Positions 1 to 45,596 of a DNA stretch of 64,000 nucleotides are shown one piece after another; position 1 is the stretch's first letter, and every line of letters begins with the position of its first letter. A model generated the notes under the pieces. It had not been told where the DNA came from. It made no database searches and was given only the letters and a program-made list of their open reading frames with translations. The DNA comes from Amphiscolops sp. MND2022 (taxonomy: Eukaryota). The stretch spans positions 41,976,001-42,040,000 of the forward strand of contig OZ076409.1 in the NCBI GenBank assembly GCA_964187785.1. The letters run 5' to 3'. Made by a program: the position numbers and the translations under genes.

Positions 1-6
1 CAAAGA

Positions 7-9388: not shown

Positions 9389-9405
9389 TGGTGGCCATAG
9401 AGAGG
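9389..9405 (+). promoter_or_regulatory. Primer-binding site of the BEL element
   Basis: TGGTGGCCATAGAGAGG directly after the LTR; TGG pairs with tRNA CCA and TGGCC fits a GGCC-start acceptor stem such as tRNA-Ile (tentative). Confidence 0.75.
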
Positions 9406-9833
9406 CATCTTTCATCTTTCACCCACAGCAATTAAACGCGCCAGAATTGTTTGTTTACTAAGAGAGCTGGAATCCTGCCGAGTTCCCAAAGTACCCATTA
9501 TTTGGACACTTGCAAATCAGGTTTGAGCTCGATCTCAAACGAAACAAGTATCGATGATTCATCTAATTTCATCGCAAATTCATTCAAGCTGCAGTTGGGT
9601 CCCGAGTTTGAGAATGATGATCAAATTATTGATGTTCAAGTAATTCTTGCGCTCTCCCCAGAAAACCTGTCAAATTGGGAATTACAGTCAGTGAATTATA
9701 ATTATAACCAAATCACTTCTAAATTTCCGACTTTCAACCAACCAATTGAACCAAATTTTGACAACTTTTATCAAACTGTGGAACTTGTACTGGGCTCACA
9801 AACTTGGGATGCACTGAAGATTTCGCAAGCAGG

Positions 9834-10030
9834 CGCCCCGAAGCCCAGCAGGTGCCCCGAAGCCCAGAAGGTACAACCCCCCCCCGAAACCCAGAAGTGC
9901 CCCCCGAAGCCCAGAAAGTGCCCCAAAGCTCAGAAGGTGCCCCCGAAGCCCAGAAAGTGCCCCGAAGCTCAGAAGGCGCCCCGAAGCCCCACAAGTTTTC
10001 CGAAGCCCAGAAGGTACCCCGGAAAATACC
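9834..10030 (+). repeat. GC-rich ~20-21-bp tandem repeat in the BEL leader
   Basis: About 9 copies of CCCGAAGCCCAGAAGGTGCC with variable C-runs. Confidence 0.9.
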
Positions 10031-10326
10031 CGTAAAAGGTTCTTTAAAAACAAAAAAAATTGTTCGAACAATTTTAACTGATTATACTTGATGTGTGCTA
10101 ATCAGCGATAGCAAGACCTTAAAAGCAAACAATATTCTGGGAAATACTGTGCTTCACAGTGGAAAAATGCGTTTTGTTGTGTAGAAAAATTTTGTAAACT
10201 ACCACACAAAAAACACAAAAGAAACCTCATTGAAGACATTTGAAAAAAAAACACATCTATCGCTCAAAAAATAAAAAATTCCCGATAATTGTAAAAAAGA
10301 TTAGTAGAAAATTGCCAAAAAAGTAA

Positions 10327-10929
10327 ATGGTTCGAATTTTGGCTGCAAGTTCTTAGCACCACGCAATTGAAACTGTTGATTCCGAACAGCAAAAGGCTAT
10401 TAACGAAAAAGTTTATTCCATACCGGGCCTGAGCTTAAACATTCACGCAAAAAATCCTCAAAAAATTGTACAAAACCTGATCGAAAAAGATTTCAAAGAC
10501 GAAAAAGAACTGATAATTTGGCACGACGTCATTAATAACAGCATCTGTAAACATAAAAGTAACTTTTATTGTGCCTTGTCAGTAATTGACTTAGTAAATG
10601 TTCTGAAATCCTATCAACACAGAATCAGGGCTCTTGTGTACTGCCAACGGAATCGAACGCCTGACATTTTCTTGCAATTGAAAGAGACAAACATTTTTGT
10701 ACTGAACATTGAAAAAGATTTTATCTCGCTGCGTAAGCAAAAGGATCTCGATTATTTGCAAAATTTGAAGGCGTTGCACCAGAGTCCTGATATAGAATTG
10801 AAACATCTGAATCTTGTTTTGAAGAATGAAAATGATTTATCACAAATTACTGCCCGTAGTCGCCCCAAACGCCCCTCTAAACGCGCCCGCAAGGCGATAA
10901 AAAACACGTTGTCTGCCGCCAACGAGTAA
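10327..10929 (+). pseudogene. ~200-codon ORF with one internal TAG, SGNH-hydrolase-like, upstream of BEL gag
   Basis: ATG 10327 is in frame with ORF 10576-10929: MVRILAASS*HH ... YSIPGLSL ... LIIWHDVINNSI ... ALHQSP match the order of SGNH blocks I, II, III and V. Confidence 0.55.
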
Positions 10930-11155
10930 ACTACTCCGCCTCTCGAGTTGTAGCTGTGTCCGGACTTAACTGACCGGTTGACGCTGCAACCCGTTTCCTC
11001 CTTCTTTTTCTGTGCTGTGTCCGAGCTTAACTGCTCGGTTGATGTTCAGAAGGAACTCCCACCCTAAACAGCAGCGTGTTCCTTTTTAATCTGCCATACA
11101 CCGTGCGACCCATCGTGACTGTCTTCTTTTAGCCTAAACAAAAAAAACAGGCAAG

Positions 11156-17100: not shown

Positions 17101-17633
17101 AAGCATACTTTCTATGCGATACTCGGCAATAGACGCTTGACCGACGAAATACTAACAACTGTGTTTTGCCTTGTGGAGCAGAGCCTAACGCTCGTCCGCT
17201 GGTTCCAGCAAGCGCAGATGCAACTGACTTGGATGCGTTAACACCCAACCACTTCTTGCTTGGAACAGCTGGCTCGTCTCTACCGTCCCATTCTAACTGT
17301 GATTTCGACCACCGCAAGCGATATGCACGCGCCCAAGCCTATTCTGACGCTATCTGGAACAGATGGCTGAGAGAATACGTGCCAACTTTGAATCGTCGCT
17401 CAAAGTGGTCCTCACAGTCCGCCAGGCAACTGAAAACCGGAGATCTAGTTTGGATCGTGGAACCCACAAGCCCGAGAGGCTATTACCCTCTCGCGCGCGT
17501 CGTCAAACTCAACTTTGGCAGCGATGCCGTCGCCCGCTCTGCCGAAGTTAAGACCACGTCCGGAAACCTCGTCCGTCCAGTCGTGAAACTAGCCCCAGTC
17601 CTCCCTTCCCCTGATTTACCTGATTTATCGTAA
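11156..17633 (+). pseudogene. gag-pol: BEL/Pao Gag-Pol polyprotein with two 1-nt frameshifts and one nonsense codon
   Basis: Triple Cys/His Gag motif (CIVC..H..C, CFSC..H..C, C..C..HNTLLH), ALCDSAC protease, RT (YLPHHPV, ADIEGMFLQV, FYMDD), RNase H (LHVFGDSS, TIPKLEL, WTDS), integrase (GLDYFGP, SDNGTNF, WERLVR); breaks at ~12538, TGA 16495-16497 and ~17185. Confidence 0.95.
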
Positions 17634-17801
17634 CCCGTAACATTTGTACTTAACCTATTAACCACATGTATCTTTGAAATATCTATAGAACGTATGTATC
17701 ATGTATCTGTCTAACAAACCGTTCATGAAAAACATGAAACAAAAAAAAGTTATCTTTTGATTTTTTTTGTTCCGACCGATTCTCTTCTCGGGCCCGGAGG
17801 A

Positions 17802-18229
17802 TGTTGCTGTGCAATACAAATACAAATACGACGGAGTTAAAACAAATAATAGGACAATTTAGAGTAGCGGTAGCGTTGTAGCTTTCCAATCATAAGATCG
17901 GAGGTTCGATTCCCGGGATCGGCCAATATTTGGGTAATATCTAAATATCCAAAAAATTTTGGATTTTTGCAAGTATATCTATTTCAAATAACCTTGAGAA
18001 ATTGCGTAAAAAGGTCTCGCTAGCTTTTGTTTGTTAGTGTTTATTGTTGTTTGATAATATTTAAATAATTATTGTTACTTTGTCTGCGAAATGCAATAAT
18101 TCTACTGTTATTTATATTCATTTGAGCCACGTTTTGACACGGATCTGACTGACATCCTATTCAAAAAATAAAGTATTGATTGCTTTGTGTTTTAACCGAA
18201 CTCTAGAACCCGAATTCTAAAGTTTTACA
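17802..18229 (+). repeat. BEL/Pao 3' LTR
   Basis: Copy of 8961-9388, preceded by GGGCCCGGAGGA and followed by the TSD AATAG. Confidence 0.97.
17852..17925 (+). ncRNA. tRNA-like sequence inside the BEL 3' LTR
   Basis: Same sequence as 9011-9084. Confidence 0.65.
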
Positions 18230-26687: not shown

Positions 26688-27407
26688 TGTAACGGCAACT
26701 GCCCATGTCAAAATTTTCGAAGCAAAAATTCGTTCAAATCTGACGTGGCACTCAAACATGCTCCAGACGAAAGACCTGTCAAAAAAGCAGATCAGAAATC
26801 AGAAATCGCCCCCGCGAGAGACGACGAGAAGAGAAGACGTAGAAAACAGTCCCTAGAACACGGTGAAGTGCTCATCTTTGGTCTTTGGCGTTTACACTAC
26901 ATAGGCAACAGAAACCGGTGTTCCAGATGCTCGCCTGAAGATCCTGCGGCGTCCTGTGCGGTGACGAGCGCTAGCGCTGGGAAGCCATGGTCAATTCATT
27001 CCTACTAAAAACTCAAACTTCCGATATTGTTGTGCTTGTTGTGCTTTCCTTGTTGTAGTAGATTGATATGCTCGAGAGCTGCCCATTTACATCTATGGTT
27101 ACCCCTTTTTGATGTCGATTTTATCAGATTCTCCAATACTATGGCTCTACATCCTCCCGTTTTCAGCCCCCTTTTTAAAGGCTAATTGAGCAGTGGTCTT
27201 GAGACATGCAAGATGCCCGTTACTTTTAGCAATTACAGACTAGGACCAGGCCAGAGAGTTTCCAACAAGACGGTTCCCCCACCTTGGGACTGGCTCCTTC
27301 GGAGGGAAAATGAGCTAGGGCCGCGGAGATCTAAGTCCCAGATTATATTCGCTGTTCTAGTTCCTCCATTCTACGTTGCGGTTCAAGCGCCAGCGCTTAT
27401 CGTTACA
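26688..27407 (+). repeat. 5' LTR of the giant Gypsy
   Basis: 7-bp inverted termini; no difference from 44877-45596 found by eye; LTR-internal ORFs translate identically. Confidence 0.97.
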
Positions 27408-27422
27408 TAGAACCTCATTTTT

Positions 27423-27440
27423 TGGCGACCACAGAGGGAT
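27423..27440 (+). promoter_or_regulatory. Primer-binding site, tRNA-Arg-like
   Basis: TGGCGACCACAGAGGGAT is complementary to a tRNA 3' end ...CCCTCTGTGGTCG-CCA, as in GACC-start tRNA-Arg. Confidence 0.75.
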
Positions 27441-28894: not shown

Positions 28895-30112
28895 GCACTG
28901 GATTTGATCAATTTTCCACAAAACCGGACTGTCTCTGAGTTAGGGTCGGGTCATCGATTCCTGAACCCTAGCCAAAAAGTGGTTGCATTTCCGTAACCAC
29001 CACAAAAAGTAACGTTAGTGCCGAAAATTTGGTGGGCGTATCGTTCCCCAAAGTCGAGAAAAGCTCTCTGACGTTTTGACTTCAGAGGAGCTGAAAAAGC
29101 CGAAAAATTCCAAAACTGCAGGACTGTCAGTGCCTTATATCCAACGGGCATAACCAATTGAGGGTTTACCCCAGTGCTACGGGTAGTGGGGCAACACGTT
29201 GGTCCCATTTTGTCCGCCGTACCACTTTCTGAAGTGATCCTCTTGGTCAATTTGTGAAAAAGTTGTCAAAAACAGTGTTTTTTCGCGTACAACGTACATA
29301 GTGGGTCGGAACTTCAAATAAGCGCTTGCGCTTCAATTCGACCACATCAGCGGCATTGTAGGTGCCCACAGGCATAAACTACCAAGTTTGGTGCCGATCT
29401 GTGTGATACTTGTGGAGAAAATAGGCAAAAAGTGGCACCCAAAAAGGTGTGCAAAAAGGCAGTTTTTTCTTGATTTTTCCAAGTAACCCGGGTACCTTAG
29501 CCAACGGGTGGGGCCATATTGCAGCCTACCATCGTAACCTGTGCTAGTTCTTACGTCGCTGCAGAGAATTTGAGCTTGCTAGCTCGTTCCAGTGGACCGC
29601 AATCTTGAAAAAGACGTGAAAAACAGTGTATTTTGGTACATAGTGGTACCGCACGTCTGTACCTAGGTGAAACTGTGTAGAAGGGGCGCAGCTCAAAACT
29701 GTGTTTATCTTCGTGAACCTACACGTACCTAAGATCTGCTGGTCAATTTTGGGCTTGATACAACGCCCCCAGCGCACACACGAGCCTCTTGAGTGTTGTA
29801 GTGCAAATTTTGGAAAATCCAAAAAATCTTTGAAATTCTTCCTGTGAGTGACCGGAGACGTTTTGCCCCGAACCAGGTTGATTTTCTGGCCCAGTGTGCT
29901 TGTGGAAAAGCGCTGTGTAAATTTGAACAGCCTACGAGCCTTAAAACGTACTTCGAGAAATTTGGGACGTGGTGAAACAGTCAAATTTCTTAAGTCCACA
30001 CCGAGACGAGCCCAAAGCTAACAGCGACTCGACAAATCCCGCGTTGTTCGAGGCTTCTTTAAAGGCTACGTCCGAATCGTTGACACCTGTTCTGCCATTG
30101 GCATTGAGTGTA

Positions 30113-33100
30113 ATGGTCCTACCAGGCCTGGAAAAGCTTGACATGAGTTCGCAATCATGGGTGACCATAGGATCCACAATGGACGGTTCGCATTTTTCAG
30201 ACGAAATGTCTGACGAAGTCACTATCGAGCAACAACGAAAGGAGGAACTGGCCGCCATGGTCCCTCCCTCCGAGGGTTCCGCTGCATCTGGAAGCTCTCG
30301 TCGAACCGAACAATGGGTCGAAGAAACCTGTCGTGAAAGAGCCAATGAAGCAGAAGAAGAGTGGCCCAACTCAAACGTGACCAACGAACTTGCAGCTGAG
30401 GAAGGGTGCTCTCGCGCACCCCTAGGGGAACAAATGAGCTCTCGCCTACAAATCACGGTGGATGAGGATCTGACCTACTCGGAAAACACGAGTGGTGCGA
30501 GACCGCAAGGGACTGGAGTCACTCGAAGTAACCATAGAGTTTGTGCTTATGGCAAACACAAGAAAGTGCGACCGCCCATGATAAATGTAGGTGAACGTCA
30601 AGTTGAGGTGCCTCGTAAGAGGAGCGTGGCAGGTTCAGTAGCATCATCCCAACGATCTTCGGTGTACAAAGCAGCAATATTGGAAGCCCAAGCCGAGACC
30701 CAACGTGCCTTAGCTGAACTGGCTAGCACTCGTGCTGGATGCAATGACCAACACCGTGCCATCGCAGAAAATATGAGAACATTGCAGACAACGATGCGAG
30801 AAGGTCTGCAGGTCAGTGATCAACTGCGAACCGCGCAGAATACGCAGGGCGCTCGCGTAGATGCACTAGGATACAGAATGGGTGAGATGAATGACCTTCT
30901 GATGGCCCGTGAACTTCGTGTGGAAACCCAGATCAATGATTTGAGTAACCAAATGCACACTGTGCTCAATGCTATCAACATCATGAGGCGCGAAAGGTCC
31001 CTCCCACGACAAGCTGGCGCCACTGAAGGTGTGCCGATCGCGGATTCAATGAAGGCCACGGAATCATCGCACCGGAGTCAGGCAACAAAACCCGAGTTGG
31101 CGAGCGTATTGAAGCCCAGCACCTCCAAGTCGACAACGCCTGAAACCCGAACCAAGGATCCTGTGCCCATCATGGCTGCCGTGGAGCGCAAACCTGCACG
31201 GGTGCAGGTAAGAGGGCCCCACGACTCCTCGTCGATGAGCCAAATGACATCCTCCATAGTTCGAAGTGCCACCCGAGACCAAGGTGTGGACCCGATGTCA
31301 CCTATCTATCTAGATACTTCTACCGAAGTTGATTTATCCTGTACTAAGGCCACACTAGGGTCCCAGACTGATGGAGCTGCGTATGTGACGGCCCCTACCA
31401 TGGTTTCTGGAACGGACTCCATGTATCTGACCGCCGACTGGACAGCTGAGGACGGGATGCCCTCGGGCGCTCCTTGCGCGAGCAGCACTCGCAGGAAAGA
31501 AGACGTGACGAACCTCTCAGTGCGAGCTACGCATGGCAGTGACGACGGCACCGATGATGTGGCGCCTAAAGAAGGAGAGGCTGAAGCCATTTCTCCTGAA
31601 CAATTGAGGTTCACTGCCGCCATTTCCAAAGCAATGTCCAAAGAACTAGCACCGTTACTTGCGGGACGTGACCTGGCTCAGACCAAACCCAGTGTGTATC
31701 GAGGCTCTAAGGACGGATCTATTGATGGCTGGATCCTAGTGATGCAGCGATACTTAAAAAGAATCCAAACCAAAATCTCGGCCGAAGATCGGGCCTGGAG
31801 TATTATCGGTCACCTCGAAGGTGAGGCTCGCAACTACATTATCAACAAGGCAGAGTCTGAACGTGACACCCCCGAGAAGGTGTTCGAGCTGCTATCTAGT
31901 CGATTTGGCGCGGGAGGAAATCGCATGCAGGTGCGGCAGACTTTCCAAAGCCGCGTCCAACAAGAAAAAGAAGACTGGATGCAGTACTTAGACGCTTTAG
32001 AGGGTCTCAGGAGCCAAGGGTTCCCGCAAGAAAGTATCACTACGAAACGCTATGAAATCCTGCAACGCTTCATGGAAGGTGTGCGAGATCCAGTGTTGAG
32101 GCGTGAACTTGCTATAGTATACGCCTCGGAAACTTTTCTTACCGAACCCCCTACCGTGGAGTCCTTGCGATTTACCACACGTCAGCTGCAACGCAATCGC
32201 CCCAGACCCACCCAACCTCAACAACCCTATGATCCCCGCTTAGCCATGAGGTCTAGACCTCATCCTTTCGCACCACTACCGCCGAACAAGATGGTTATGC
32301 CGCAGGGCGTCTTGCCACCTCCGGCGCCCCCCCAAAATGTCCCAGTTCCGGCTGTCCCAGCTCCCGTCCGAGCGCCAGTAGGTGCTTGTTTTCACTGTGG
32401 GCAAAACGGACATTTTGCTCGCGAGTGCCCCAATCGTGACCAGGCCCGAAAACCAATGACCGCCTCCGAACCAGAGGGCGTGAAGGTGACCACGGAAGAC
32501 ACGACCGATGGTATCCTTGAAGGTCATCCAGGGATCTATCAATGCGCGAGCTGTGGCCTTTTTGATCAGGCGGAAGTGCAATGTGGAGAGCACTCCCATG
32601 CGCCGAAACCCAATGAAGAGTTGGCCTACAATCGGTGGGCTGAGGTCGAATCAGCTGGCATCGCCGCGCACACCGTACCTTTGGAAGATGACCGAGTGTT
32701 GATGCTACACCCAGCGGAACCGCCTGCGTTCCACACTCCGATGACTTTCACTTGTGGTGCTAAGCAAGTTCAAACCTGCTTGGAACCCACAACGTTCGAT
32801 CCGCAAGGACGTACACTGATTTCAATTCACCTGTTGCTGGCAGCTGAGCAAACACGTAGGCCGACGCTAACTCTGGCGAAGCTATGGGTCGAATTATCTA
32901 TCCTCTATAAACGAAACGAGTTACCTCGACCGAAAGAATGGTACGCTCCGGGAGAGTCTGCGACTCTGACAACGTATTCCCCAGTGCCAGTCTGCGCTTC
33001 AATGGATGGAGTGGACATGAAGTTCGAAGCCTGTGTGGTGGTGGATGTGTTTCCCCCTGGCATTTGTCTGGGTCCCCAGGAGCTCAAATGCTATAACATC

Positions 33101-36100
33101 AATCACCAGGAGCCCACCGGCGAAGCGCGTATAGATGAGCGTGCGTCGCTCGTGGTCTCTTTCGTGGTGCCTCATGCAGCACCTATTCCGCTGCGAGGAC
33201 TGGTGGACACTGGCTCGGGCGTCTCCATACTGACGTTTTCCGCCTTCAACAGAGTGGCAGCTAAAACTGGAACGGTACTTAAACCCTACCAAGTTGACCT
33301 ATACGCAGCCAACGGGAAGACAATAAAAACCTACGGCCTCGCAGAACACATCCATTTCCAGCTGGGAGGATACGAACTTGAAACGAACTTTGTGGTGGTA
33401 GATGACGCAATGGGCGTGGAAGACTTCCTACTTGGCCGGAACTTTCTTCGCTCCTACCAGGTGTTAGTGGATCTAACATCTATGAAGATTGTGGTGCGAG
33501 CACCAGTGAAGCCTGTGTGGCATCATGCTCACGCACAGGTAGGTGACACTTCAATAGCTACTCCAGTCGTTTTGGACAGTGACTTGGTCCTGCAACCTTT
33601 TGAACGAGCGGTGGCTAGAGCCAAGCTCGTCACCAACACACTAGAGCCGCTGATTTTTCAAAGCGTAGCACTCAATGCCTCTTTGTCTGACACTACGTTG
33701 CACAATGTCGTCTTTTTAGAGGACAGCGTGGCCACTGTCAGTGAGACAGGAACACTCTTTGTGAGTCTGATAAATCTCACCAGCAACCCTCAACGTATGC
33801 GGTGTGGTGTACAACTGGGCACCGTAGTACCCGTAACGGTAGTATACCAAGCAGTACCTCAATGTTTGGACTCTCCCACTACAACCGGCACTAAAACTGA
33901 CGCCGACGACAGTCGTGCAAATTTTGTTCATAAAGTTTATAGTGAAGTGAATCTATCTACTGCTTCTGAGTTAACCTCTTCTTCCGAATTTGAGTTTTTG
34001 TCCTCTACTGACCCTAGCGAAGCAGGACTATCGGAGCGCGAGATTCGCAAACGAACAGACCCAGAGCTAATGGCTCCGATTCCTGGGCCGGAATCTCAGC
34101 TCAAGGCGGTCAAGGATTTGTGGGGCGCTAGCGCCTGCGAGTCTCTCCGTAACCTCCTCGATGAATTCGATGAGCTGTTCATGAAGCACAAAGCAGATAT
34201 CGGTCGGTGCACTATCGCTAAGCACACCGTGGAGGTGGAACCAGGGGCTGTACCGCATCGCGAAGGTGCTCGCCGGATGTCTCCTGAGAAGGCCGAACGT
34301 GCCAATCAGGAGGTACGGAATCTCTTAGCTCTGGGAATGATACAGCCCTCGCTGTCCCCCTGGGCGAGCGGCATTGTAATGGTGAAAAAGAAAAACGGGG
34401 AGTTACGCTTTTGCTGCGACTTCCGCCCGTTAAATGAGGTAACCATTAAGGATGCTTATCCCTTGCCCCGCATCGATGAAAGCCTGGCACGGCTAGGCAA
34501 AGCAAAGATCTATACCAGCATAGACCTTGCTTGGGCCTTTTGGCAAATTCCCGTACGCAAAGCGGATCGCCACAAAACCGCTTTTGCTTGCGAGTTAGGA
34601 CTTTTTGAGTGGCGGCGAATGCCATTTGGTATGTGCAATGCATCTGCCACGTTTCAACGGTCAATAGCGCGTGCGCTAAGGAATATTGTCAATCGTGAGG
34701 GCAGCATGGTCATGGCCTACATTGATGATATCGTGATTGCCACGGAGACTGTGGAAGACCATATGGTACGTCTACGTGAAGTCTTTGAATGTCTCCGTGA
34801 GGCCGGTTTCAAAATGCGCGTGGCCAAATGCGATTTCATGAAATCGGAAATCAAATATTTGGGACGAGTGGTATCCGCAGAAGGAGTGAAGCCCGACCCA
34901 AAAGCCGTCGTCAAGTTGCGTGACTGGGAAATTCCCCGCAACAAGACGGAAATGCAGAGTTTCCTTGGATTTGCCAACTATTATCGCGAGTTCATTCCTT
35001 GGCACGCCAAGCTGGTTGCACCCCTGCACGCCGTCACTGGACTGAATGCCACCTTCGCCTGGGGTCCTGAGCAACAAACCGCATTCAATGAGATCAAAAA
35101 AGCCCTAATCGAGGCAACTGCGCTCGCACAGCCTGATTCCGAAGGAGAGTTTGTGTTGGACACTGACGCTAGTGCTGTCGCCATTTCGGGTATCCTGCAC
35201 CAGTGGCAAGGCCCCCCGGGTGAACGACGCCTGAGACCGATAGTTTACGGTAGCAAGAAGCTCACCACCACACAAGCCAAATACGGAGCCCCCAAACTTG
35301 AAATGTTCGCCGCTTACTATTTCATAGTGAAGAACCACAGCTATTTATGTCCCCGAAAATTTACCCTGCGGGTGGACAACCAAGCTTTGTCCTGGTTGAA
35401 AACCTACTCCACGGATCAAGCGTTAATCGGCCGATGGATCATGACCCTGGAAAAATATCACTTTCGCGTGGAACACCGCCCAAGGACCCAACATCGAAAC
35501 GCCGATGGCTTGAGCAAACGAACCAACGAGTACCGATGCCGCGAAAAACAGCTTGCACAGCAGCCAGCTGCGGGCGAGCGCTGGAACTTTCTTTCAGCTG
35601 ACGAATTTGATAAACTACCTGTTGCCCCATGGTTCGACCTTCAGGGTCGAGTCATCCCGAACCATCCCGAGTTACCTGCGCACCTGCAGAACTTGGAGCC
35701 TACGGCTCCCGACCAATTGCTACGCGTACTTCGCCGCACCAAACGAGCGACCAGGAGGGACAGACAAGCGAAAGCATTCGCAGCCCCTTTACCACCTCCG
35801 CCTGCCCTTGCTCTGCAACTGCACGAGGATGCCTATCCAGACTACCCTGAGGATTGGATCGATGTGACTGACGAAGCACGCGAAGATTATCTATTGCCAA
35901 CGCATGCCGTAAATGTTCCCTCGCGTACCGTCTATGCCATTGCCGGGGTGAATCCTGTGGCGTTGCAAGGTACTCCCTCGGGTGTGCGCGACTCAATTAT
36001 GGCTCTTAAAGATATCAACACTGAACTTCACGAACATGCTCACACCGTGCATGGTATCAAAGATTTGGTTCTAGCCCAAAACCGTGATGTTCATGTGCTA

Positions 36101-39100
36101 GCACTCAAAAAGTTGGTGCTGAACGAATCTATTGATCACGACGTGTTTCCCGAGAACGTGCGTGAGTTCGCACGCAACTACTACCGTCAGAAGAAAACCC
36201 TCCTGTTTATCAACAAGAATGGTGTACTTTGCGTACAATACCCTCCCAACCAACGTCCCCTGCACGAACGTCCGTGCATGATCGTCATGCCACAACTGTA
36301 CCAGCATGAGATTTTATTCCGCGCGCATGACGCTATGGGACATCAAGGTATCTCCAAAGTGGTGGCTAGGATTCAAGAACGTCACACATGGCCTGGTATT
36401 CGGCGCAGCGTGGGCCGTTACGTTGGCCAATGCCTCACCTGTCAACAAGTGCGGGATAAGCCTGGTGACGTCCGATTCCATTTAAAGAATATCCAGAGCG
36501 GATACTTCAACGAATTGGTTCAATATGATCACCTGAAAATCTGCCCCTCAGACAGTAATAACACCGGCATCTTGGTCATAATTGACCATTTCTCCAAGTT
36601 CGCGGAAGCAGTGCCCTGTAGTCATCATGACTACGACGCTGTGACTACCTCTCGGTTGCTGTTGCAAAAGTGGTTCGCCCGTCATGGCACACCCACTAGG
36701 ATGCAGTCTGACAATGCCCCTAATTTGACTGCCGAGGTGTCCAACGAATTCCTAAAAGCAGCCCACGTCACCAAAGTAACCTCTACAGCTAGCCATCCGA
36801 GAACCCAAGGCTTGGTCGAGCGCCAAAATCGGACGCTGCTGACCCTACTGCGAGTTTTTTGTTCCCGCCGTATGCGCGATTGGGACCAATGTCTTGATGA
36901 GGTCATGGGTGCCTACAACTCTACGAGGCACGCTACCACTGGCTTCTCTCCCTATATGCTGACCCGTGGCGTAGAGAAGGCCATCCCTCTCACCTTCTTG
37001 TATCCCGAGTTTGCAGCCAAATCATTCGAGTCGCATGAGGCGTATGTCGATCATGTATTGGCTCGCCAACAGGAAATACATGACCTGGTACGGCGTAACA
37101 CGCACCAAGCCCAATTGCGTCAAAAATTGAAGTACGACCGTGCTATACAAGCACGAGCTTACCAAGTAGGCGAGCTCGTCTGGGTTTTTTGCCGCTACGT
37201 ACCGCAAAAGGGTTCCCCGAAATTGATGCGTGCTTGGCGAGGCCCGCACAAAGTGGTACAAGTTTTTCAGGACGGTCGTGTCTATGTACTAGACACAGGT
37301 CAAAAAGTTCATTTTGAGCGTCTTAAACCGCACCACAGTGGCCCCCTTGAACTTGCTACTGCACACTCGGACAGTGGTGAGGTGGTGGTCCTCATGGACC
37401 CCGAACCTGAACGTTCCGTCGACGTAGTTGATGACGACAAATCTTTATCGTCGTATAAACCAGAACAACTACTTTCAGAGGCGTCCGATGCATCTTTGCC
37501 CTCACGTCGACGTCACTGGATGGACACCCGACTACGCTCGAAACTTCGCGCAGGCGGCTCCCGCCCGCATTATCAGCAATTTGACTATTCCACATCGGGT
37601 ACAGACGACGAACAATCCGATGCCATGTTGCCGATACCTCCTAATCCAGTGGACGAGGATCTAGCGGAGCCTGCGGCTCCTCCGACTACGTTGGATCAGT
37701 CAATATCCCCTGCCCGTGTATTACCCCAGCTGTTCTCTGACCATGAGCGCGTGCGCTCACCGTCTCCGCAAATATCCTCTGAAGAAGAGACATCGTTACC
37801 AGGAACCTCAGCATCCTTGTTAACGAATCCCTCGCTAACCAACTTTCTTAGTAACTATCCCATATGGCCGACCGCCCCTCCGATCCCCCTCAAATCTGCC
37901 AGCAGCGACAGCGACGGTCAGCCCGATCTGCCTGATGCTCCCGAGACTTCGCCAGGAGCGGGGACCGCTCCTTCTCTTAAAAGGGGGAGGGGGAGACCAC
38001 CCAAGGCACAGAAGAAACGGCTGATTCGAGCGAAGGCAAGAACGAGGAAGAAAGAAACACCGAGAAAAACCGAAGCTGAAACTGCGATCCAGGCCGAAAC
38101 GGAAGCTCCCAGAACTGCAGAGACGCTAACAGAAGCATCTGCAACTGCTCTTAGGTATCAACTAAGGAGTAAGCGACAGCCGCGCTACAAGTGTGGAACC
38201 TGCGGGCTGCGAGATTGTGTCTGCTTATTAGCTGTGAATGAGAACCGGAGGGTTCCCATTGGAGCCCGGGGAGTTCCTCCGGAAGAGAGAGAAAACTTGG
38301 TGTACCGCCTCACGGTGCGGGCCGAGAAAACCTACTCAGCTGTAGAGCGGTCCGGAGACTACCCTGTGGACACTATCCTGGAGAAGTTGTCACTGCCTGG
38401 GGTAACGAAGGCCCCTTGTCCTAGGTTTAAGGAGTGGACAAGCGATGGAAAGGGCCTGGAGTTTACCCTGCCCACGGTGTTGCCCCCCGTGCCCAGTAAT
38501 GTTGCGTTTGGACCATTCAATTTTGAAAGGGAACCTGTGCAGATGGTCCGATGCATCACTGCTGACTTGTTGTGCGACAAGTATGGAGTCCAGGTGGAAC
38601 CAGGAGGGGTATACAGCCCGGCTCCTCACTGGTGGCTGCTGGTAACAGCTCCACGAGTGGAGGCGCTGGTAGAACCGTTGAATCTGTTATCCTGTCTGGA
38701 GAGTCTGAGGACCCTCACCACTGTGGACTTAATACTTTGCTTCCATATTATAGACTGGTACCGAGGCAAAATGAAGTTCGCGTGGTGGCTGGAACTAATA
38801 ATCACATGTTTCGCCACCTATCCCAGAATTCGACTATTAGATGAGTGGACCCACACTTTCGAGATCCCCTTGTTCCCTAAAGCCGCCCTGGGAACTTTAG
38901 ACGCGTGGGTAAAGGCCGGCAGCGACAATCGAGCGATGCCCCGCTCAGTGTGGCAAGACCTGGCTGCAGTCCAAGGGCGTACCCCTCGCGTGTGTCTGCC
39001 CTCAGATAATGGCCCCGGACGAGAGATTGTTTACCCGGGAGCCCTGTATCCGAACTCAGCCGAACACGTCTCTTACGATGAATCCGATTTCTTGCAGGCC

Positions 39101-39526
39101 GAGGGCGACATAGTGTTAGCATGCCCTGCTGACCTGAAGACCAACTCTGCCGCCCTGCGATATGTGCTGCGGGAGTGCGGCATGGAAGATGTATTTGCCT
39201 TACGACCTAAAGTGGGCGAGATTCTCACTATCCCGCCCGATGTGAACCCCAACCCCAACCAAAGTATTCACCTGTTGATAGTCCGTGCTAACCAGCGCGC
39301 ACCGCTGCTGACAGACGACTACTTGCGTTGCATGGCGCACTTGACACAGCGCCTGATTGATAAAGGATCCACACGGGTCCACCTACCGATTCTGGATCCT
39401 GAGAGACCGGCTTTCTCGTTGGTTAACCTGTACCATACTCTAGCGAGCATGTTCGAGGGTACTGGTATTCACGTGGTTTTGCATAGCCGCGTATATGTAT
39501 CAATATTAACTATAGGGCTGAAGTAG
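30113..39526 (+). CDS. gag-pol: Gag-Pol polyprotein (~3137 aa from the first ATG) with a long post-integrase extension
   Basis: Uninterrupted frame (open from 29969): CFHCGQNGHFAREC knuckle 32387, LVDTGS 33206, dUTPase-like segment ~33560-33836, YIDD 34718, LDTDAS RNase H ~35150, HHCC and D-D-E integrase ~36326-36820, WRGP motif ~37234. Confidence 0.96.
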   Translation: MVLPGLEKLDMSSQSWVTIGSTMDGSHFSDEMSDEVTIEQQRKEELAAMVPPSEGSAASGSSRRTEQWVEETCRERANEAEEEWPNSNVTNELAAEEGCSRAPLGEQMSSRLQITVDEDLTYSENTSGARPQGTGVTRSNHRVCAYGKHKKVRPPMINVGERQVEVPRKRSVAGSVASSQRSSVYKAAILEAQAETQRALAELASTRAGCNDQHRAIAENMRTLQTTMREGLQVSDQLRTAQNTQGARVDALGYRMGEMNDLLMARELRVETQINDLSNQMHTVLNAINIMRRERSLPRQAGATEGVPIADSMKATESSHRSQATKPELASVLKPSTSKSTTPETRTKDPVPIMAAVERKPARVQVRGPHDSSSMSQMTSSIVRSATRDQGVDPMSPIYLDTSTEVDLSCTKATLGSQTDGAAYVTAPTMVSGTDSMYLTADWTAEDGMPSGAPCASSTRRKEDVTNLSVRATHGSDDGTDDVAPKEGEAEAISPEQLRFTAAISKAMSKELAPLLAGRDLAQTKPSVYRGSKDGSIDGWILVMQRYLKRIQTKISAEDRAWSIIGHLEGEARNYIINKAESERDTPEKVFELLSSRFGAGGNRMQVRQTFQSRVQQEKEDWMQYLDALEGLRSQGFPQESITTKRYEILQRFMEGVRDPVLRRELAIVYASETFLTEPPTVESLRFTTRQLQRNRPRPTQPQQPYDPRLAMRSRPHPFAPLPPNKMVMPQGVLPPPAPPQNVPVPAVPAPVRAPVGACFHCGQNGHFARECPNRDQARKPMTASEPEGVKVTTEDTTDGILEGHPGIYQCASCGLFDQAEVQCGEHSHAPKPNEELAYNRWAEVESAGIAAHTVPLEDDRVLMLHPAEPPAFHTPMTFTCGAKQVQTCLEPTTFDPQGRTLISIHLLLAAEQTRRPTLTLAKLWVELSILYKRNELPRPKEWYAPGESATLTTYSPVPVCASMDGVDMKFEACVVVDVFPPGICLGPQELKCYNINHQEPTGEARIDERASLVVSFVVPHAAPIPLRGLVDTGSGVSILTFSAFNRVAAKTGTVLKPYQVDLYAANGKTIKTYGLAEHIHFQLGGYELETNFVVVDDAMGVEDFLLGRNFLRSYQVLVDLTSMKIVVRAPVKPVWHHAHAQVGDTSIATPVVLDSDLVLQPFERAVARAKLVTNTLEPLIFQSVALNASLSDTTLHNVVFLEDSVATVSETGTLFVSLINLTSNPQRMRCGVQLGTVVPVTVVYQAVPQCLDSPTTTGTKTDADDSRANFVHKVYSEVNLSTASELTSSSEFEFLSSTDPSEAGLSEREIRKRTDPELMAPIPGPESQLKAVKDLWGASACESLRNLLDEFDELFMKHKADIGRCTIAKHTVEVEPGAVPHREGARRMSPEKAERANQEVRNLLALGMIQPSLSPWASGIVMVKKKNGELRFCCDFRPLNEVTIKDAYPLPRIDESLARLGKAKIYTSIDLAWAFWQIPVRKADRHKTAFACELGLFEWRRMPFGMCNASATFQRSIARALRNIVNREGSMVMAYIDDIVIATETVEDHMVRLREVFECLREAGFKMRVAKCDFMKSEIKYLGRVVSAEGVKPDPKAVVKLRDWEIPRNKTEMQSFLGFANYYREFIPWHAKLVAPLHAVTGLNATFAWGPEQQTAFNEIKKALIEATALAQPDSEGEFVLDTDASAVAISGILHQWQGPPGERRLRPIVYGSKKLTTTQAKYGAPKLEMFAAYYFIVKNHSYLCPRKFTLRVDNQALSWLKTYSTDQALIGRWIMTLEKYHFRVEHRPRTQHRNADGLSKRTNEYRCREKQLAQQPAAGERWNFLSADEFDKLPVAPWFDLQGRVIPNHPELPAHLQNLEPTAPDQLLRVLRRTKRATRRDRQAKAFAAPLPPPPALALQLHEDAYPDYPEDWIDVTDEAREDYLLPTHAVNVPSRTVYAIAGVNPVALQGTPSGVRDSIMALKDINTELHEHAHTVHGIKDLVLAQNRDVHVLALKKLVLNESIDHDVFPENVREFARNYYRQKKTLLFINKNGVLCVQYPPNQRPLHERPCMIVMPQLYQHEILFRAHDAMGHQGISKVVARIQERHTWPGIRRSVGRYVGQCLTCQQVRDKPGDVRFHLKNIQSGYFNELVQYDHLKICPSDSNNTGILVIIDHFSKFAEAVPCSHHDYDAVTTSRLLLQKWFARHGTPTRMQSDNAPNLTAEVSNEFLKAAHVTKVTSTASHPRTQGLVERQNRTLLTLLRVFCSRRMRDWDQCLDEVMGAYNSTRHATTGFSPYMLTRGVEKAIPLTFLYPEFAAKSFESHEAYVDHVLARQQEIHDLVRRNTHQAQLRQKLKYDRAIQARAYQVGELVWVFCRYVPQKGSPKLMRAWRGPHKVVQVFQDGRVYVLDTGQKVHFERLKPHHSGPLELATAHSDSGEVVVLMDPEPERSVDVVDDDKSLSSYKPEQLLSEASDASLPSRRRHWMDTRLRSKLRAGGSRPHYQQFDYSTSGTDDEQSDAMLPIPPNPVDEDLAEPAAPPTTLDQSISPARVLPQLFSDHERVRSPSPQISSEEETSLPGTSASLLTNPSLTNFLSNYPIWPTAPPIPLKSASSDSDGQPDLPDAPETSPGAGTAPSLKRGRGRPPKAQKKRLIRAKARTRKKETPRKTEAETAIQAETEAPRTAETLTEASATALRYQLRSKRQPRYKCGTCGLRDCVCLLAVNENRRVPIGARGVPPEERENLVYRLTVRAEKTYSAVERSGDYPVDTILEKLSLPGVTKAPCPRFKEWTSDGKGLEFTLPTVLPPVPSNVAFGPFNFEREPVQMVRCITADLLCDKYGVQVEPGGVYSPAPHWWLLVTAPRVEALVEPLNLLSCLESLRTLTTVDLILCFHIIDWYRGKMKFAWWLELIITCFATYPRIRLLDEWTHTFEIPLFPKAALGTLDAWVKAGSDNRAMPRSVWQDLAAVQGRTPRVCLPSDNGPGREIVYPGALYPNSAEHVSYDESDFLQAEGDIVLACPADLKTNSAALRYVLRECGMEDVFALRPKVGEILTIPPDVNPNPNQSIHLLIVRANQRAPLLTDDYLRCMAHLTQRLIDKGSTRVHLPILDPERPAFSLVNLYHTLASMFEGTGIHVVLHSRVYVSILTIGLK

Positions 39527-39820
39527 CCTTTTCATTTTAGTTGTCCCCATTTTTCCTTTGCCCTCAGTTCTTGTATCAGTTTTTGTAACAACCTTGGCAG
39601 AGCCTTGAAATGCTCTCGAGATGTTAATTTGTCATGTTGTTCACTCAAGGTTTTGTTCTAGTTCGTTAGTTAGTTAGAGTTAGATTTTAAGTTTGTAGTG
39701 GCCCCTTTATGGAGCCAGCGTTGCCTGGCTGCAATTGAGGGACGAACCGACTCGCGGCTCGTTCCAGAGAGAACTTGTCCCTGTAAGTTTAACAGTGGTC
39801 CTTTTTAGACCTATGCATTA

Positions 39821-42490
39821 ATGGCCCATTGCCCTAACAATTCAGCGCCTGCAACTGGGTCTAATAGTGCAAGGCCCCAGGAATCTGCGCGAGCGCAGAG
39901 GGTCAATCAGGCCCAATATGTCGAAGAAAGGCTGCGGGACGGTCTTTCGCCAGTAGCCGTAGCTGGAGTGGCCGCCCTACTGACCCAGCTTGAATCGATG
40001 CAAATGCTGCCAAATGCATCTTTATCAATCACCACGGAGGTGGCAAGCTATCGTCGCACCTTGACGTGCACCAACAATGCTTGGGATGGGCACGATCTGA
40101 CTCACCAGTTCTTGGACGAAAGATCAATCGCAGTGCATGGCCCCAGCCAGGGCACCAGATTCGAACAAGAAACATCACTGCGCATGATGCCCGTCAACGT
40201 CCCATCGCTGCCTTCCATTGCGGCACCAAATCCAGTGCAGATGACGCCGCATTCTAGCTCGATTGCTTATGGAGCACCATATGGAACCCGGACAACGACG
40301 ACGCAGAACACTACCAATCAACCAGCCTCAAGTCGGGAGCCCTCGGGGTCCCAACCGCCATCAGTGCCTAATCTAAATCTGATTGGACGGAGTCCCAGCG
40401 AGCAAGCAGTGATTGTGGCCCTGCAGGCTGTCGCCAACTACCCCAACTCCTCTGACTTCGTTCGTGCCGTTGAGCAAAGGATTCCCGGATTGACACATTA
40501 CTTGCAAGCTGCCGCTCAGCCCTCGGGCTGCGTCACCCCACCCACCACCCTAGCCGAAACTGTGTCTATGGAAGCAGAAACTACGGCTGGACCAAGCACC
40601 AGCGCCATGACCTATCCCCGTGAGGAAACTGGCCGGAAGCGACTTACTGAGGAAAATATCGTCGCTACACGCCATGATTCCGTGACCGACAGTCCGACCA
40701 GTCGTCCCCCTCCGGACAAGCGAGCAGATGTACCCCACCAGTCGCAGATGAAAAGTGTGGTGGTCGTGAGGCCTCCATATCGCCATGGCCACCTAGGCGT
40801 AGGCGCGCCTCAGATGTCCCTGGAAGAGGCCATCAACCGCTACGGCAGTGTGGAGGCGAATCCTGAAACGAGTCCTGTGCCCTCGGGCACAGGCTCTGCC
40901 AACATGTCCTTGGAGGTGTCCGAGACAATCGATGAGAACAATCCTCCCGCCTTTCTTCCCCCGTCCGATGACGTATCTGGGACAGTGGTGACTGGCGACA
41001 GCAAACGCATTTGGATGGCGGCGGAGTGTTTGTACCCAAACACGTGTGCGATCAGAAGGAGGGCACCGCCGTCTGACGCCGACCAGAAAGAAGTGAGCAG
41101 GATCACCATTGCGGCTCAGATAACTCGGTCGCTGCGTGCCCGTGATGCGGACATGAGCGAGCAAGCCTGGGAACAGCGTGCTCGAGAGCAACTGCCCGCG
41201 ACACCCAACAATTATATGGCTCGCCTGCAGCATGACCTCGCCGAGCAATTTCCTGCTAGGTACATGTTGCACGAAGGGGAGACCTGGGAAGCCAACGCCC
41301 GCTATGCTCGCAACATCGAATCAATGAAGCCCCTTCTGAAAGCGGCCCTGCAGCGTGCGCGCTACTGTGTGGCAGTGGACTCGACACTTAGGAGTGATCT
41401 CCCCATCGACAACCTTCTACCCGACGTGCTGGTATTAACAATGCCACTCTCCCGCTTCGCTGAGGTTGCCGAGATGGTCGCGGTCATGTATGACCCTAAC
41501 TTGAGGGGATCTCTAAGAGAGCCGCCCCCGCGACGTGTGATCTTCACAAATCTAATCGACCACATGGCTTGTGAAGGGGTGCTACGCAACCTGGATGCCC
41601 TCATGGCAGATACCCGCAGACCTGGGAGTGTAGCGTCCTTAGTGAACGTGGTTGCAGATGCAATGGAGCGTGCAGCAGGGATCCTTCGGGGTCGTCTGGG
41701 AGCGCTCGCGCTCTTCGCATCCCCGCCGGGATTCATGTATTGGCAACGAAGCTTGCAGCAATTTGTGTACATCCTGTCTGAAGTATGCAAAGCGCGCCGA
41801 ATCGAGTTCGCTATTTGCGCGCCAAATCTGCGAGTTGATCGAGGAGACCTACGCCCAGATGCATTGTCATACCCCGCCTTCTTTGCTGCCGTGTCAAGAG
41901 TACTAATCGCTGTGGAACGATCAGGAAATGCCCAACTGACTATCGACGACGCTATACTGTTCGATCATGGAATGTGTATGGGGCGCATGGCCTTCGACTT
42001 GGACGGGAATCGCGTCATGCGAGCATCCAACCTGACTGAACGAGAAGCCGTCCGACGATACAACTGGCTGGTGCGGAAGGACAAAGAAATTCCCGTACGA
42101 GCAGAGCTGGCAGAGCTCGTGAAGGAAATTGAGACCTGGCCCGCCACGCGCACGGTCGAAAGGACCATTCCCCAGATTCGATTTGCCGCGGGAATAGAAC
42201 CCGTCAAGTTGCCCGTGGGCATGAGGTACGTCGTGGCCATAGAGGCGACCAACTTGAAGGCTGAAGTAGATGCTGCCGGAATAACGTATGCCGAATGGTA
42301 TCAGTCCAGATTCGTGGACAGGACCCTGGCAGAGGTAGCTCAAGAGCTTAACTGTCCCTTGGAAGCCTTTTGTACCAGTCTCGGACTGGGCTGGAACATC
42401 GACGTGATAGCCTCTGAGTACTTGCTCACCAATGTGCAGACCGATAAATTGTTGGAAACCATCGGCGAAGCTACTGTGGGGAGATGTTAG
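39821..42490 (+). CDS. Gypsy ORF2 N-terminal part (889 aa): disordered N-terminus plus SGNH-fold-like domain
   Basis: Long sense ORF between pol and the 3' LTR; CVAVDSTLR / VLTMPLSR / VIFTNLIDH / DLRPDALSY motif series. Confidence 0.8.
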   Translation: MAHCPNNSAPATGSNSARPQESARAQRVNQAQYVEERLRDGLSPVAVAGVAALLTQLESMQMLPNASLSITTEVASYRRTLTCTNNAWDGHDLTHQFLDERSIAVHGPSQGTRFEQETSLRMMPVNVPSLPSIAAPNPVQMTPHSSSIAYGAPYGTRTTTTQNTTNQPASSREPSGSQPPSVPNLNLIGRSPSEQAVIVALQAVANYPNSSDFVRAVEQRIPGLTHYLQAAAQPSGCVTPPTTLAETVSMEAETTAGPSTSAMTYPREETGRKRLTEENIVATRHDSVTDSPTSRPPPDKRADVPHQSQMKSVVVVRPPYRHGHLGVGAPQMSLEEAINRYGSVEANPETSPVPSGTGSANMSLEVSETIDENNPPAFLPPSDDVSGTVVTGDSKRIWMAAECLYPNTCAIRRRAPPSDADQKEVSRITIAAQITRSLRARDADMSEQAWEQRAREQLPATPNNYMARLQHDLAEQFPARYMLHEGETWEANARYARNIESMKPLLKAALQRARYCVAVDSTLRSDLPIDNLLPDVLVLTMPLSRFAEVAEMVAVMYDPNLRGSLREPPPRRVIFTNLIDHMACEGVLRNLDALMADTRRPGSVASLVNVVADAMERAAGILRGRLGALALFASPPGFMYWQRSLQQFVYILSEVCKARRIEFAICAPNLRVDRGDLRPDALSYPAFFAAVSRVLIAVERSGNAQLTIDDAILFDHGMCMGRMAFDLDGNRVMRASNLTEREAVRRYNWLVRKDKEIPVRAELAELVKEIETWPATRTVERTIPQIRFAAGIEPVKLPVGMRYVVAIEATNLKAEVDAAGITYAEWYQSRFVDRTLAEVAQELNCPLEAFCTSLGLGWNIDVIASEYLLTNVQTDKLLETIGEATVGRC

Positions 42491-44100
42491 CGCTCGCGCT
42501 AGCCATGGGCCCGACGAAGTTTGTGGCAGGTCCCCTTGCTATGTTAGTCGAGTTGGTAGTGTCTAGTGATCTAGTCACTTTCTACAGCTACCTGATCCTC
42601 GCGCAGGGACAATTACGCAGCCTAACTCGATGGGGTCACCTCCTAAATTCCAAGGACCAGCAAGACTATGTCGCCCAGCTAGAACGCATGCGTGCGTCCC
42701 TCCAACATTGGTTGTACTCCACCCTAGTGTTCGCCTCTGGCTTGTTCGTAGGCGTGGATCAATCGCAACCCCTCCACCATTCCGAGCGTCAACTCCCTGC
42801 GGAAACGGCGGGATTCCCCATGCCCCAGCAAATCGCCGATTTGACTCTGGCCGAAGTGGAGGACTTCGTGGCCGTTATGGCTTCCGTCTTGGCTCCAATC
42901 TTCGGTGCGGTCGGTGTGTGCCGGTATCCCACCAGACCACTGACGAGAACAGTACAGGTGCATATGGTCTCCTTCTGCACCTATCTTCAAGGACGGCCCC
43001 CACTAACCTACCAACGAATCGTACAGGCTGTATTGAGTGGCGAGATGCCGCACGGGTACACCACCTTGAAGTCGGAGAAACAACTAGAAGAGAATTTGAT
43101 GGGTCTGTTGCGTGCTCGCACACGAAAAGCGTGCCCTTTGCCACGAGAATACGGCCCAGTCAACTGGTACTCCGCACCACTCAGCCTGAATGGAGTCCCC
43201 TTTAGATTCCCCTGGTCGCAGGAGTTCATACGCAAGGTGATCCGAGCCAGCATTAGTGCTGGTCCACCCGTAGATCCTCTGTACGCTTTCAAATGCATCA
43301 CTTTCCCAAATCACTACTGGAAGGAGCCACTGGGATGGCCTAGGGCAAAACCCGTTGGTCGCGCCCCTGAAGCCTTCAATCGACAAATCCAGTATATGGA
43401 ATTGACTCAAATCCCAAACTGGATTGAAGGAGCAGCTCAGACTCGTCAGAGAAACCTGCAGAGCCGTGTGACTCCGTTCCCAAGAAAAGCTGCCTGGCGA
43501 CCGCAAGCCAAGATGACGATGTCAGGGGATATGTCCATCGTCCAACACGATGAGATTAATTCTGTGCTAGGCTCTGAAGCCCGCGCAGAGTGGGAAGGAC
43601 ATTGTTTGGAGCTGGAAATTGCCAGCTTCCCCAAATGGAAGCGAGCTTGCGAGCTCTGGAGTCAGCCCGGCTGGGTCTCCAAGCGGATATCCTTGGCCGT
43701 GGAGAGCAGAGCTGAACTCGAGAGACAACAGGCGTTCGCGCCTACCATGCTGGCACCCACAATGGCCATGTCACTAAGTCAGCCCATCGACCGGCCCGTG
43801 ACCCTGGATTTGCCCACTCATATCCTGCAGGCAGAGCCTGTGAGTCCACCATCGACACAAGCCAGTCCTCAGTCATCACAACCCCAGACCGGAGAACACG
43901 ACGCTGAACTGACCCCCAGCACTATCCTGGTGCAGCCAATCGCCGATTTGACGCTCCCAGAGGACCTGTCCGACTCGGAAACAGTAGTTACTGTGGTTCC
44001 TGCTCAACGCAGAGCGTCAGTTGCGTCGGAAGATGCCAGCAATCCAGGAGCTCCCGATGATGCCATAAAGAATCGAGCTCGACGCAGCTCAGCCCAATAA
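42484..44100 (+). CDS. Gypsy ORF2 C-terminal part or ORF3 (538 aa), function unknown
   Basis: Overlaps the previous ORF by 7 nt; one extra G in GTGGGGAGATG would fuse the two. Confidence 0.75.
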   Translation: MLALALAMGPTKFVAGPLAMLVELVVSSDLVTFYSYLILAQGQLRSLTRWGHLLNSKDQQDYVAQLERMRASLQHWLYSTLVFASGLFVGVDQSQPLHHSERQLPAETAGFPMPQQIADLTLAEVEDFVAVMASVLAPIFGAVGVCRYPTRPLTRTVQVHMVSFCTYLQGRPPLTYQRIVQAVLSGEMPHGYTTLKSEKQLEENLMGLLRARTRKACPLPREYGPVNWYSAPLSLNGVPFRFPWSQEFIRKVIRASISAGPPVDPLYAFKCITFPNHYWKEPLGWPRAKPVGRAPEAFNRQIQYMELTQIPNWIEGAAQTRQRNLQSRVTPFPRKAAWRPQAKMTMSGDMSIVQHDEINSVLGSEARAEWEGHCLELEIASFPKWKRACELWSQPGWVSKRISLAVESRAELERQQAFAPTMLAPTMAMSLSQPIDRPVTLDLPTHILQAEPVSPPSTQASPQSSQPQTGEHDAELTPSTILVQPIADLTLPEDLSDSETVVTVVPAQRRASVASEDASNPGAPDDAIKNRARRSSAQ

Positions 44101-44876: not shown

Positions 44877-45596
44877 TGTAACGGCAACTGCCCATGTCAA
44901 AATTTTCGAAGCAAAAATTCGTTCAAATCTGACGTGGCACTCAAACATGCTCCAGACGAAAGACCTGTCAAAAAAGCAGATCAGAAATCAGAAATCGCCC
45001 CCGCGAGAGACGACGAGAAGAGAAGACGTAGAAAACAGTCCCTAGAACACGGTGAAGTGCTCATCTTTGGTCTTTGGCGTTTACACTACATAGGCAACAG
45101 AAACCGGTGTTCCAGATGCTCGCCTGAAGATCCTGCGGCGTCCTGTGCGGTGACGAGCGCTAGCGCTGGGAAGCCATGGTCAATTCATTCCTACTAAAAA
45201 CTCAAACTTCCGATATTGTTGTGCTTGTTGTGCTTTCCTTGTTGTAGTAGATTGATATGCTCGAGAGCTGCCCATTTACATCTATGGTTACCCCTTTTTG
45301 ATGTCGATTTTATCAGATTCTCCAATACTATGGCTCTACATCCTCCCGTTTTCAGCCCCCTTTTTAAAGGCTAATTGAGCAGTGGTCTTGAGACATGCAA
45401 GATGCCCGTTACTTTTAGCAATTACAGACTAGGACCAGGCCAGAGAGTTTCCAACAAGACGGTTCCCCCACCTTGGGACTGGCTCCTTCGGAGGGAAAAT
45501 GAGCTAGGGCCGCGGAGATCTAAGTCCCAGATTATATTCGCTGTTCTAGTTCCTCCATTCTACGTTGCGGTTCAAGCGCCAGCGCTTATCGTTACA
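44877..45596 (+). repeat. 3' LTR of the giant Gypsy
   Basis: Copy of 26688-27407 after GAAGCCCGGGGAGTGA. Confidence 0.97.

Follow-up and report, generated by a model that had tools for sequence, protein, structure and literature searches.

The analysed stretch, called here the window, comprises 64,000 nucleotides of contig OZ076409.1 (positions 41,976,001 to 42,040,000, forward strand) in assembly GCA_964187785.1 of Amphiscolops sp. MND2022. It contains a complete long terminal repeat (LTR) retrotransposon of the Ty3/gypsy type, in which a long gag-pol open reading frame (ORF) is followed, in the position usually taken by env, by a second large coding region, ORF2, the subject of this work (Table 1). 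The assignment to Ty3/gypsy rests on the paired LTRs with TG...CA ends and on the domain order of the gag-pol product, where Gag is followed by protease, reverse transcriptase (RT), RNase H and integrase (Pfam; RVT_1 E 1e-34). The two LTRs are identical in 720/720 positions, the insertion must therefore be very young. Despite this identity, the flanks of the element (26682-26687 and 45597-45602) match over 3 bp only, which is short for a gypsy target duplication (4-6 bp).

Table 1. Features of the ORF2-bearing element and of the neighbouring BEL/Pao element (window coordinates; aa, amino acids)
Feature	Position	Strand	Remarks
BEL/Pao element, neighbouring	8961..18229	+	428-bp LTRs (425/428), 5-bp target duplication
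BEL accessory ORF	10327..10929	+	200 codons, upstream of gag; SGNH-like, basic tail; stop at codon 10 in window copy
Ty3/gypsy LTR retrotransposon, complete	26,688-45,596	+	18.9 kb, internal part 17.5 kb
5' LTR	26688..27407	+	720 bp, TG...CA ends
Primer-binding-site-like TGG motif	27423..27440	+	15 nt after 5' LTR; seen in sequence
gag-pol ORF	29945..39526	+	unbroken, 3,193 codons stop to stop; PNMA-like capsid, CCHC, protease, RT, RNase H, integrase
Conserved extra C-terminal region of Pol	38525..39523	+	~330 residues; 38-53% identity in other families
Candidate splice acceptor	39799..39808	+	pyrimidine-rich, AG at 39,807-39,808; TAG is also in-frame stop before ORF2
Upstream ORF, 2 codons, out of frame	39813..39821	+	between acceptor and ORF2 ATG; stop overlaps ORF2 start codon
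ORF2, first piece	39821..42490	+	889 aa from ATG; residues 1-887 match full-length relative
Small conserved N-terminal domain	39878..40135	+	~aa 20-105; 34-40% identity to 37% families
Predicted SGNH-fold domain	41354..41929	+	aa 512-703; pLDDT 82, pTM 0.84; Z 10.9
SGNH domain residues	41,381; 41,561; 41,852	+	Ser521; His581; Arg678
Conserved region, partly helical	41936..43689	+	aa 706-1290, spans break; 26-62% identity per 50 aa to 37% families
Frame overlap of ORF2 pieces	42448..42490	+	break near 42,480
ORF2, second piece	42448..44100	+	550 aa stop to stop; residues 11-550 are aa 887-1426 of full-length relative
Only clearly hydrophobic stretch of ORF2	42865..42921	+	aa 1016-1034, internal, proline-containing, moderate; Kyte-Doolittle 2.28 (1.7-2.6 in relatives)
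3' LTR	44877..45596	+	720 bp

ORF2 lies 294 nt after pol and is present in the window as two overlapping frames. An earlier, sequence-only reading of this DNA had proposed that the two are one gene of ~1,430 aa, joined when one G is added at ~42,478. We re-found both pieces at the coordinates it gave, and the existence of unbroken relatives bears the proposal out. The closest relative, P0005, is a single protein of 1,426 aa and stands at the head of a cluster with 581 members; among the 15 members listed, 7 have 1,426 aa, at 96.5-100% identity to P0005, and the other 8 are shorter. Residues 1-887 of P0005 are covered by the first piece at 97% and residues 887-1426 by the second at 98% identity; since nothing is missing between the two ends, ORF2 is one gene which was broken once, near 42,480. 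Of the 151 aligned records, 98 reach the break region; 96 of these run through it ungapped and the window copy alone ends at residue 887, so among the aligned records the break, either a mutation or an assembly error, is private to this copy.

ORF2 belongs to a diverse protein family. Other full-length families have 1,435-1,521 aa, at identities of 74% and 37-40%, and a family near 50% identity is represented by pieces. When 1.84 billion representatives were searched with a profile, 642 proteins were obtained at E<=0.001; nearly all of the 150 that were listed were fragments, the identity of some to any family representative being only 27-36%, and fragments at 21-36% identity still retained the motifs described below. 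No relatives with DNA were found in viral or metagenome contigs. When P0005 was compared in 50-aa windows with P0070, the most distant full-length family, identity was 42-52% in the range aa 501-750 and 42-62% in the range aa 901-1150, against 14-32% in the range aa 101-450. Because frames of ~1,450 codons stay open at such divergence and identity is concentrated in domains, these comparisons point to purifying selection on ORF2.

The conserved parts are a small N-terminal domain, which had no match in the PDB, a central domain discussed below, and the long region aa 706-1290, most of which was modelled at a predicted local distance difference test score (pLDDT) below 50; the linkers consist to 33% of Pro, Ser and Thr. 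The ~600 conserved residues beyond the central domain match nothing. ORF2 gave no match in Pfam or NCBIfam and no significant match in PDB sequence searches, and the ESM Atlas contained no usable match for the central domain. A match to the tobacco mosaic virus coat protein (E 0.4 per single domain) was rejected as chance. Two short basic-Ser motifs, RRxS and a terminal RxxSSAQ-like end, persist across the families at 37% identity in a tail (44010-44097) that is otherwise unconserved; it is possible that they are phosphorylation or docking sites.

In spite of its position, ORF2 is very probably not an Env. A hydropathy scan (Kyte-Doolittle >=1.6, 19-residue window; no signal-peptide predictor was applied) detected no hydrophobic stretch in the first 889 or the last 390 aa, in agreement with the sequence-only reading, which had noticed neither a signal peptide nor a C-terminal anchor. 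There is no conserved internal furin-type site: such a site is absent from P0070 and P0149, and in P0005 and P0016 it occurs at the extreme C-terminus only. Nor did ORF2 match any fusion protein, in a search where the region aa 706-1290 was represented by a low-confidence model. Taken together, the identity of the element, the one-gene structure of ORF2, its long-term conservation and the absence of envelope features appear to us nearly certain.

The central domain very probably has the SGNH hydrolase fold, as judged from its predicted structure. The sequence-only reading had suggested an SGNH-like domain from five motifs, all of which are present in the order it described. Modelled alone (aa 500-725, 56-row alignment), the domain reached a pLDDT of 82 and a predicted template modelling score (pTM) of 0.84, and consisted of five strands alternating with helices. 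Its best structural match among 48,161 chains (VIA-align) was a GDSL lipase (Z 10.9, root-mean-square deviation (rmsd) 3.6, 165 residues aligned), 43 chains were matched at Z >=8, and the top matches had Z 10-11, rmsd 3.2-4.0 and 150-180 aligned residues. Eleven of the best 50 matches stand in the SGNH table of PMC10792757. The best viral match was a phage SGNH protein (E 5.5e-4). The rest of the best 50 we take, largely by their titles, to be esterases, acyltransferases or SGNH proteins. An 866-aa model of a relative, P0014, was poor (pLDDT 40), with matches at Z 5-7 that were a mixture of enolase barrels and SGNH proteins.

The fold seems to have been kept without its usual active site. In the register used here, which was set by motif following the blocks tabulated in PMC10792757 and not by coordinates, the ORF2 blocks VDSTL, MPLSRF, FTNLID and DLRP stand against GDSIV, FPGARV, HVGTND and D-x-LHP of the long interspersed nuclear element (LINE) esterase. 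It must be noted that the counts over ~104-108 records come from redundant records; a diverse alignment was counted as well. The Ser of block I (Ser521) is kept in 103/104 records. The Gly position of block II is Leu in 104/106, Asn is found at the block III position in 0/107, and the His position of block V is Arg (Arg678) in 104/108 records and in 39/45 rows of the diverse set; the acid position of block V is variable, with Asp in 6/45 diverse rows. The structural alignments with thioesterase I (1ivn, model 13-201 on chain 1-179; 5tic with the same offsets) place Ser10 on Ser521 and His157 on Arg678, provided that the end segments are ungapped. The loss of the catalytic His, already suspected from the sequence, was thus confirmed, but the loss is wider than was then thought, as it includes the Gly, Asn and Asp positions. 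Since these four positions are replaced, ORF2 probably lacks canonical esterase activity and would be a pseudo-esterase.

Spliced messages are the usual source of the proteins encoded in the env slot (PMC5408684), and we think it somewhat more probable than the contrary that ORF2, too, is expressed from its own, spliced RNA. The pyrimidine-rich acceptor-like site that had been pointed out just upstream of the ATG is real: none of the other AGs between pol and ORF2, 24 in all, adjoins a pyrimidine run as long as that next to the AG at 39,807 (8). Its use in splicing is plausible from its sequence, although 11 of the 24 AGs have at least 13 pyrimidines in the 20 bases upstream. The candidate acceptor lies beyond four of the five upstream ATGs; the fifth opens the 2-codon ORF past the acceptor, therefore translation of ORF2 would need leaky scanning or re-initiation. 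The spacer also contains a run of TTAG repeats (39660-39690), possibly a splicing or RNA-binding element.

Our preferred reading, to which we assign a probability of about 0.45, is that ORF2 encodes a 1,426-aa accessory protein, broken once in the window copy, in which the catalytic positions of an SGNH domain were replaced and which acts as a non-catalytic anchor for anionic lipids. The protein would be cytosolic and would consist of the N-terminal domain, a low-complexity linker, the pseudo-esterase, the large conserved region and the basic-Ser tail. Its remodelled pocket, with the kept Ser and an invariant Arg in place of His, might take up an anion; we tentatively suggest a phosphate or a carboxylate, in the first place that of a lipid head group. 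By such binding the protein could bring the particles of the element, or its RNA or ribonucleoproteins (RNPs), to membranes. We favour membrane anchoring because of the nearest tested case, the esterase of the LINE ZfL2-1: it binds anionic phospholipids as well as liposomes, and its active-site mutants retain this binding (PMC3905857).

Several observations weigh against this reading. Foldseek found no PDB match at E<=0.001 and had a kinase in its first row, and the identities in the structural alignments are only 6-16%. The net charge of the domain is only +3 over 195 aa, while binding by the ZfL2-1 esterase is charge-driven, a difficulty that weighs on RNA binding also. Ser521 is present in only 23/28 diverse rows, many of which are fragments of decayed copies, and in one of the diverse rows, P0303, the position of Arg678 is occupied by His. 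Asp580-His581 is as conserved as Arg678 (His581 in 106/107 records and 40/43 diverse rows), which fits a rebuilt active site. The SGNH domain makes up 13% of the protein, and the function may lie in the other ~600 aa. Finally, selection was judged from protein comparison only, and the position of the distant ORF2 families after pol was assumed.

Two alternatives retain some weight, each of them unlikely in our estimate. According to the first, ORF2 is an Oskar-like pseudo-esterase, whose domain would bind RNA (the genome of the element, or host germ-line messenger RNPs) and whose Pro/Ser/Thr-rich linkers would form or enter granules. The OSK domain (5a4a) was among the structural matches (Z 8.4, rmsd 5.2, 154 aligned), it is the only one of 30 structures in which the triad is wholly absent, and its block III Asn position is likewise taken by a hydrophobic residue (PMC10792757, Table 2); the composition of the linkers agrees with this view, and the invariant Arg would suit phosphate binding. 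However, OSK ranks 38th, 2.5 Z below the best match, it keeps the Gly and loses the Ser, the reverse of ORF2, and the net charge of the ORF2 domain is weak. Moreover, the ZfL2-1 esterase does not bind oligo(A) (PMC3905857), and the N-terminal domain had no LOTUS match in a search that was insensitive.

The second alternative is an active enzyme with a rebuilt site, in which Ser521 would serve as nucleophile, His581 with Asp580 as base and Arg678 as oxyanion or substrate site, the activity being that of a deacylase or acyltransferase. It would account for the pairs D520-S521, D580-H581 and R678-P679, all near-invariant, and permuted or chimeric triads are known among SGNH proteins (PMC10792757). 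On the other hand, 29/29 non-OSK structures in the table of that paper have the block V His. Far less probable is a third possibility, in which the SGNH domain would be a relic that serves as scaffold and the protein would act through its other regions, for instance by counteracting silencing by the host. In its favour, the conservation of aa 951-1150 equals that of the SGNH domain (42-62% identity to P0070) and the basic-Ser motifs persist in the tail, but a relic would have no need of the invariant new residues now found at the former active-site positions. About as improbable, in spite of the env slot, the candidate acceptor and the one internal hydrophobic stretch of conserved character, is the view that ORF2 is an envelope or fusogen of unusual type, used for spread from cell to cell, as there is no hydrophobic segment at the N- or C-terminus, no conserved internal furin-type site and no match to a fusion protein.

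ORF2 can be compared with several known systems. Capture of an SGNH domain, at which the sequence-only reading had hinted, was published earlier for LTR elements: the Vesta LTR retrotransposons of bdelloid rotifers carry a GDSL/SGNH ORF3 (Rodriguez, Kenefick, Arkhipova 2017, PMC5408684). Like ORF2, the Vesta ORF3 follows pol as a separate ORF in the env slot and encodes an SGNH protein which is not an Env; it is thought to come from a spliced message. By the published description, which is all that was compared, ORF3 has intact catalytic residues and is ~1.3 kb long, whereas ORF2 has four of five catalytic positions replaced, is 4.3 kb long and has ~600 extra conserved residues. The same paper reports catalytically dead, His-less GDSL derivatives in the Athena-L Penelope-like elements, and states the role of non-Env ORFs in the env slot as an open question.

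The ORF1 esterase of ZfL2-1, which has relatives in CR1/L2, RTEX and Penelope elements (Schneider et al. 2013, PMC3905857), is likewise a retroelement-borne SGNH domain, and its block II, FPGARV, is similar in shape to MPLSRF of ORF2 (PMC10792757, Table 2). It differs from ORF2 in being active, in its gag-like position and in its length of 300 aa. Its structure (4C1B) was not in our top-50 structural lists, which excludes nothing. The OSK domain of Oskar resembles ORF2 as an animal SGNH pseudo-enzyme linked to a small N-terminal domain, and RNA binding has been shown for it (PMC10792757, PMC7250577). OSK is, however, the product of a host gene, its catalytic losses differ as described above, and its homology to ORF2 is limited to the fold.

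In length and in the possession of extra domains and accessory ORFs, the element resembles the giant gypsy elements Burro and Ogre (Arkhipova and Yushenova 2019, PMC6431247), although its internal part (17.5 kb) is below the 20-kb bar of that paper. Burro has apoptosis/ubiquitin domains and an in-frame Env, and the accessible text does not mention SGNH for Burro or Ogre. A term search of PMC13524379 found none of the words SGNH, esterase and macro. In the literature searched, which did not extend to Repbase, subscription journals, figures and supplements (where His-less examples may be present), we found no SGNH pseudo-enzyme ORF of the size of ORF2 in a gypsy element. Relative to the literature found, what is new is therefore the size (~1,430 aa) and the apparently inactive form, an SGNH protein in the env slot being already known.

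The neighbouring BEL/Pao element also encodes an SGNH-like protein. The sequence-only reading had noticed this ORF and regarded its element as unrelated. We could not detect any similarity between ORF2 and the BEL ORF (hhalign probability <=0.1%, with shallow profiles), in line with that view, but the BEL ORF lies upstream of gag and not in the env slot, and it keeps the Ser, Gly, Asn and His positions. In the best 120 of its 229 relatives, Ser was found in 110-112, Gly in 110, Asn in 117 and His in 114, while the acid position is Lys in 115. Block III starts with His in 118 of the same 120; this His, lacking in ORF2, corresponds to His191 of ZfL2-1 (HVGTND), which was called transposon-specific (PMC3905857). 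The BEL ORF had no sequence match in Pfam or the PDB, and among its language-model neighbours at 0.90, Lipase_GDSL_2 was found in 21-30% of members. The BEL ORF is likely to be an active counterpart of ORF2 in the same genome. Because the two do not align, occupy different positions and have lost different residues, their relationship would fit either separate acquisition or very old divergence from a shared pool of retroelement esterases. Our literature searches, with Repbase and subscription journals outside their coverage, found no SGNH ORF in a BEL element. The leader of the BEL element contains a tandem array of a 19-bp unit (9828-10017).

Some other features of the locus deserve mention. 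The conserved C-terminal tail of Pol, which is preceded by a Cys-rich conserved motif, CGTCG..C.C, had no match in Pfam or the PDB and contains a weak internal repeat (E 0.003, probability 4-7%). By eye it resembles two tandem degenerate macro domains of the OARD1 type, an unconfirmed likeness which we take as an assumption only; our literature searches found no macro domains in gypsy elements. The non-coding leader before gag is ~2.7 kb long (27408-30140), and carries a 93-nt repeat whose copies, at 28,621 and 28,802, are 90% identical. Same-strand exons stand on both sides of the element, with matches to LDL-receptor-A at 19635-26551 and to ShK and ENaC/degenerin at 46355-47308, which places the insertion within an intron of an animal gene. 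These matches suggest that the gene encodes a channel equipped with LDLa and ShK modules. Another Ty3/gypsy element, broken and with pieces of protease and RNase H, is found at 1-4513, and a tandem array with a 29-bp unit lies near the end of the window (63158-63362).

One can also imagine a more ambitious scenario, in our opinion improbable, in which a giant gypsy family swapped its Env for a pseudo-esterase whose pocket, independently of Oskar, turned into an RNA or lipid site. Together with a new fold of 600 residues, the protein would route particles to the germ line without an envelope, and two unrelated LTR superfamilies in one genome would each have recruited an SGNH domain for that step. 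The results described here leave the picture of Ty3/gypsy replication unchanged, and capture of SGNH domains by mobile elements is recurrent. The ~600 conserved residues without a match may hold a new domain. The presence in one genome of ORF2 and of the likely active BEL ORF makes a side-by-side assay possible, and an SGNH fold that was long kept while its catalytic residues were replaced would separate a binding role of this domain from its role as an enzyme.

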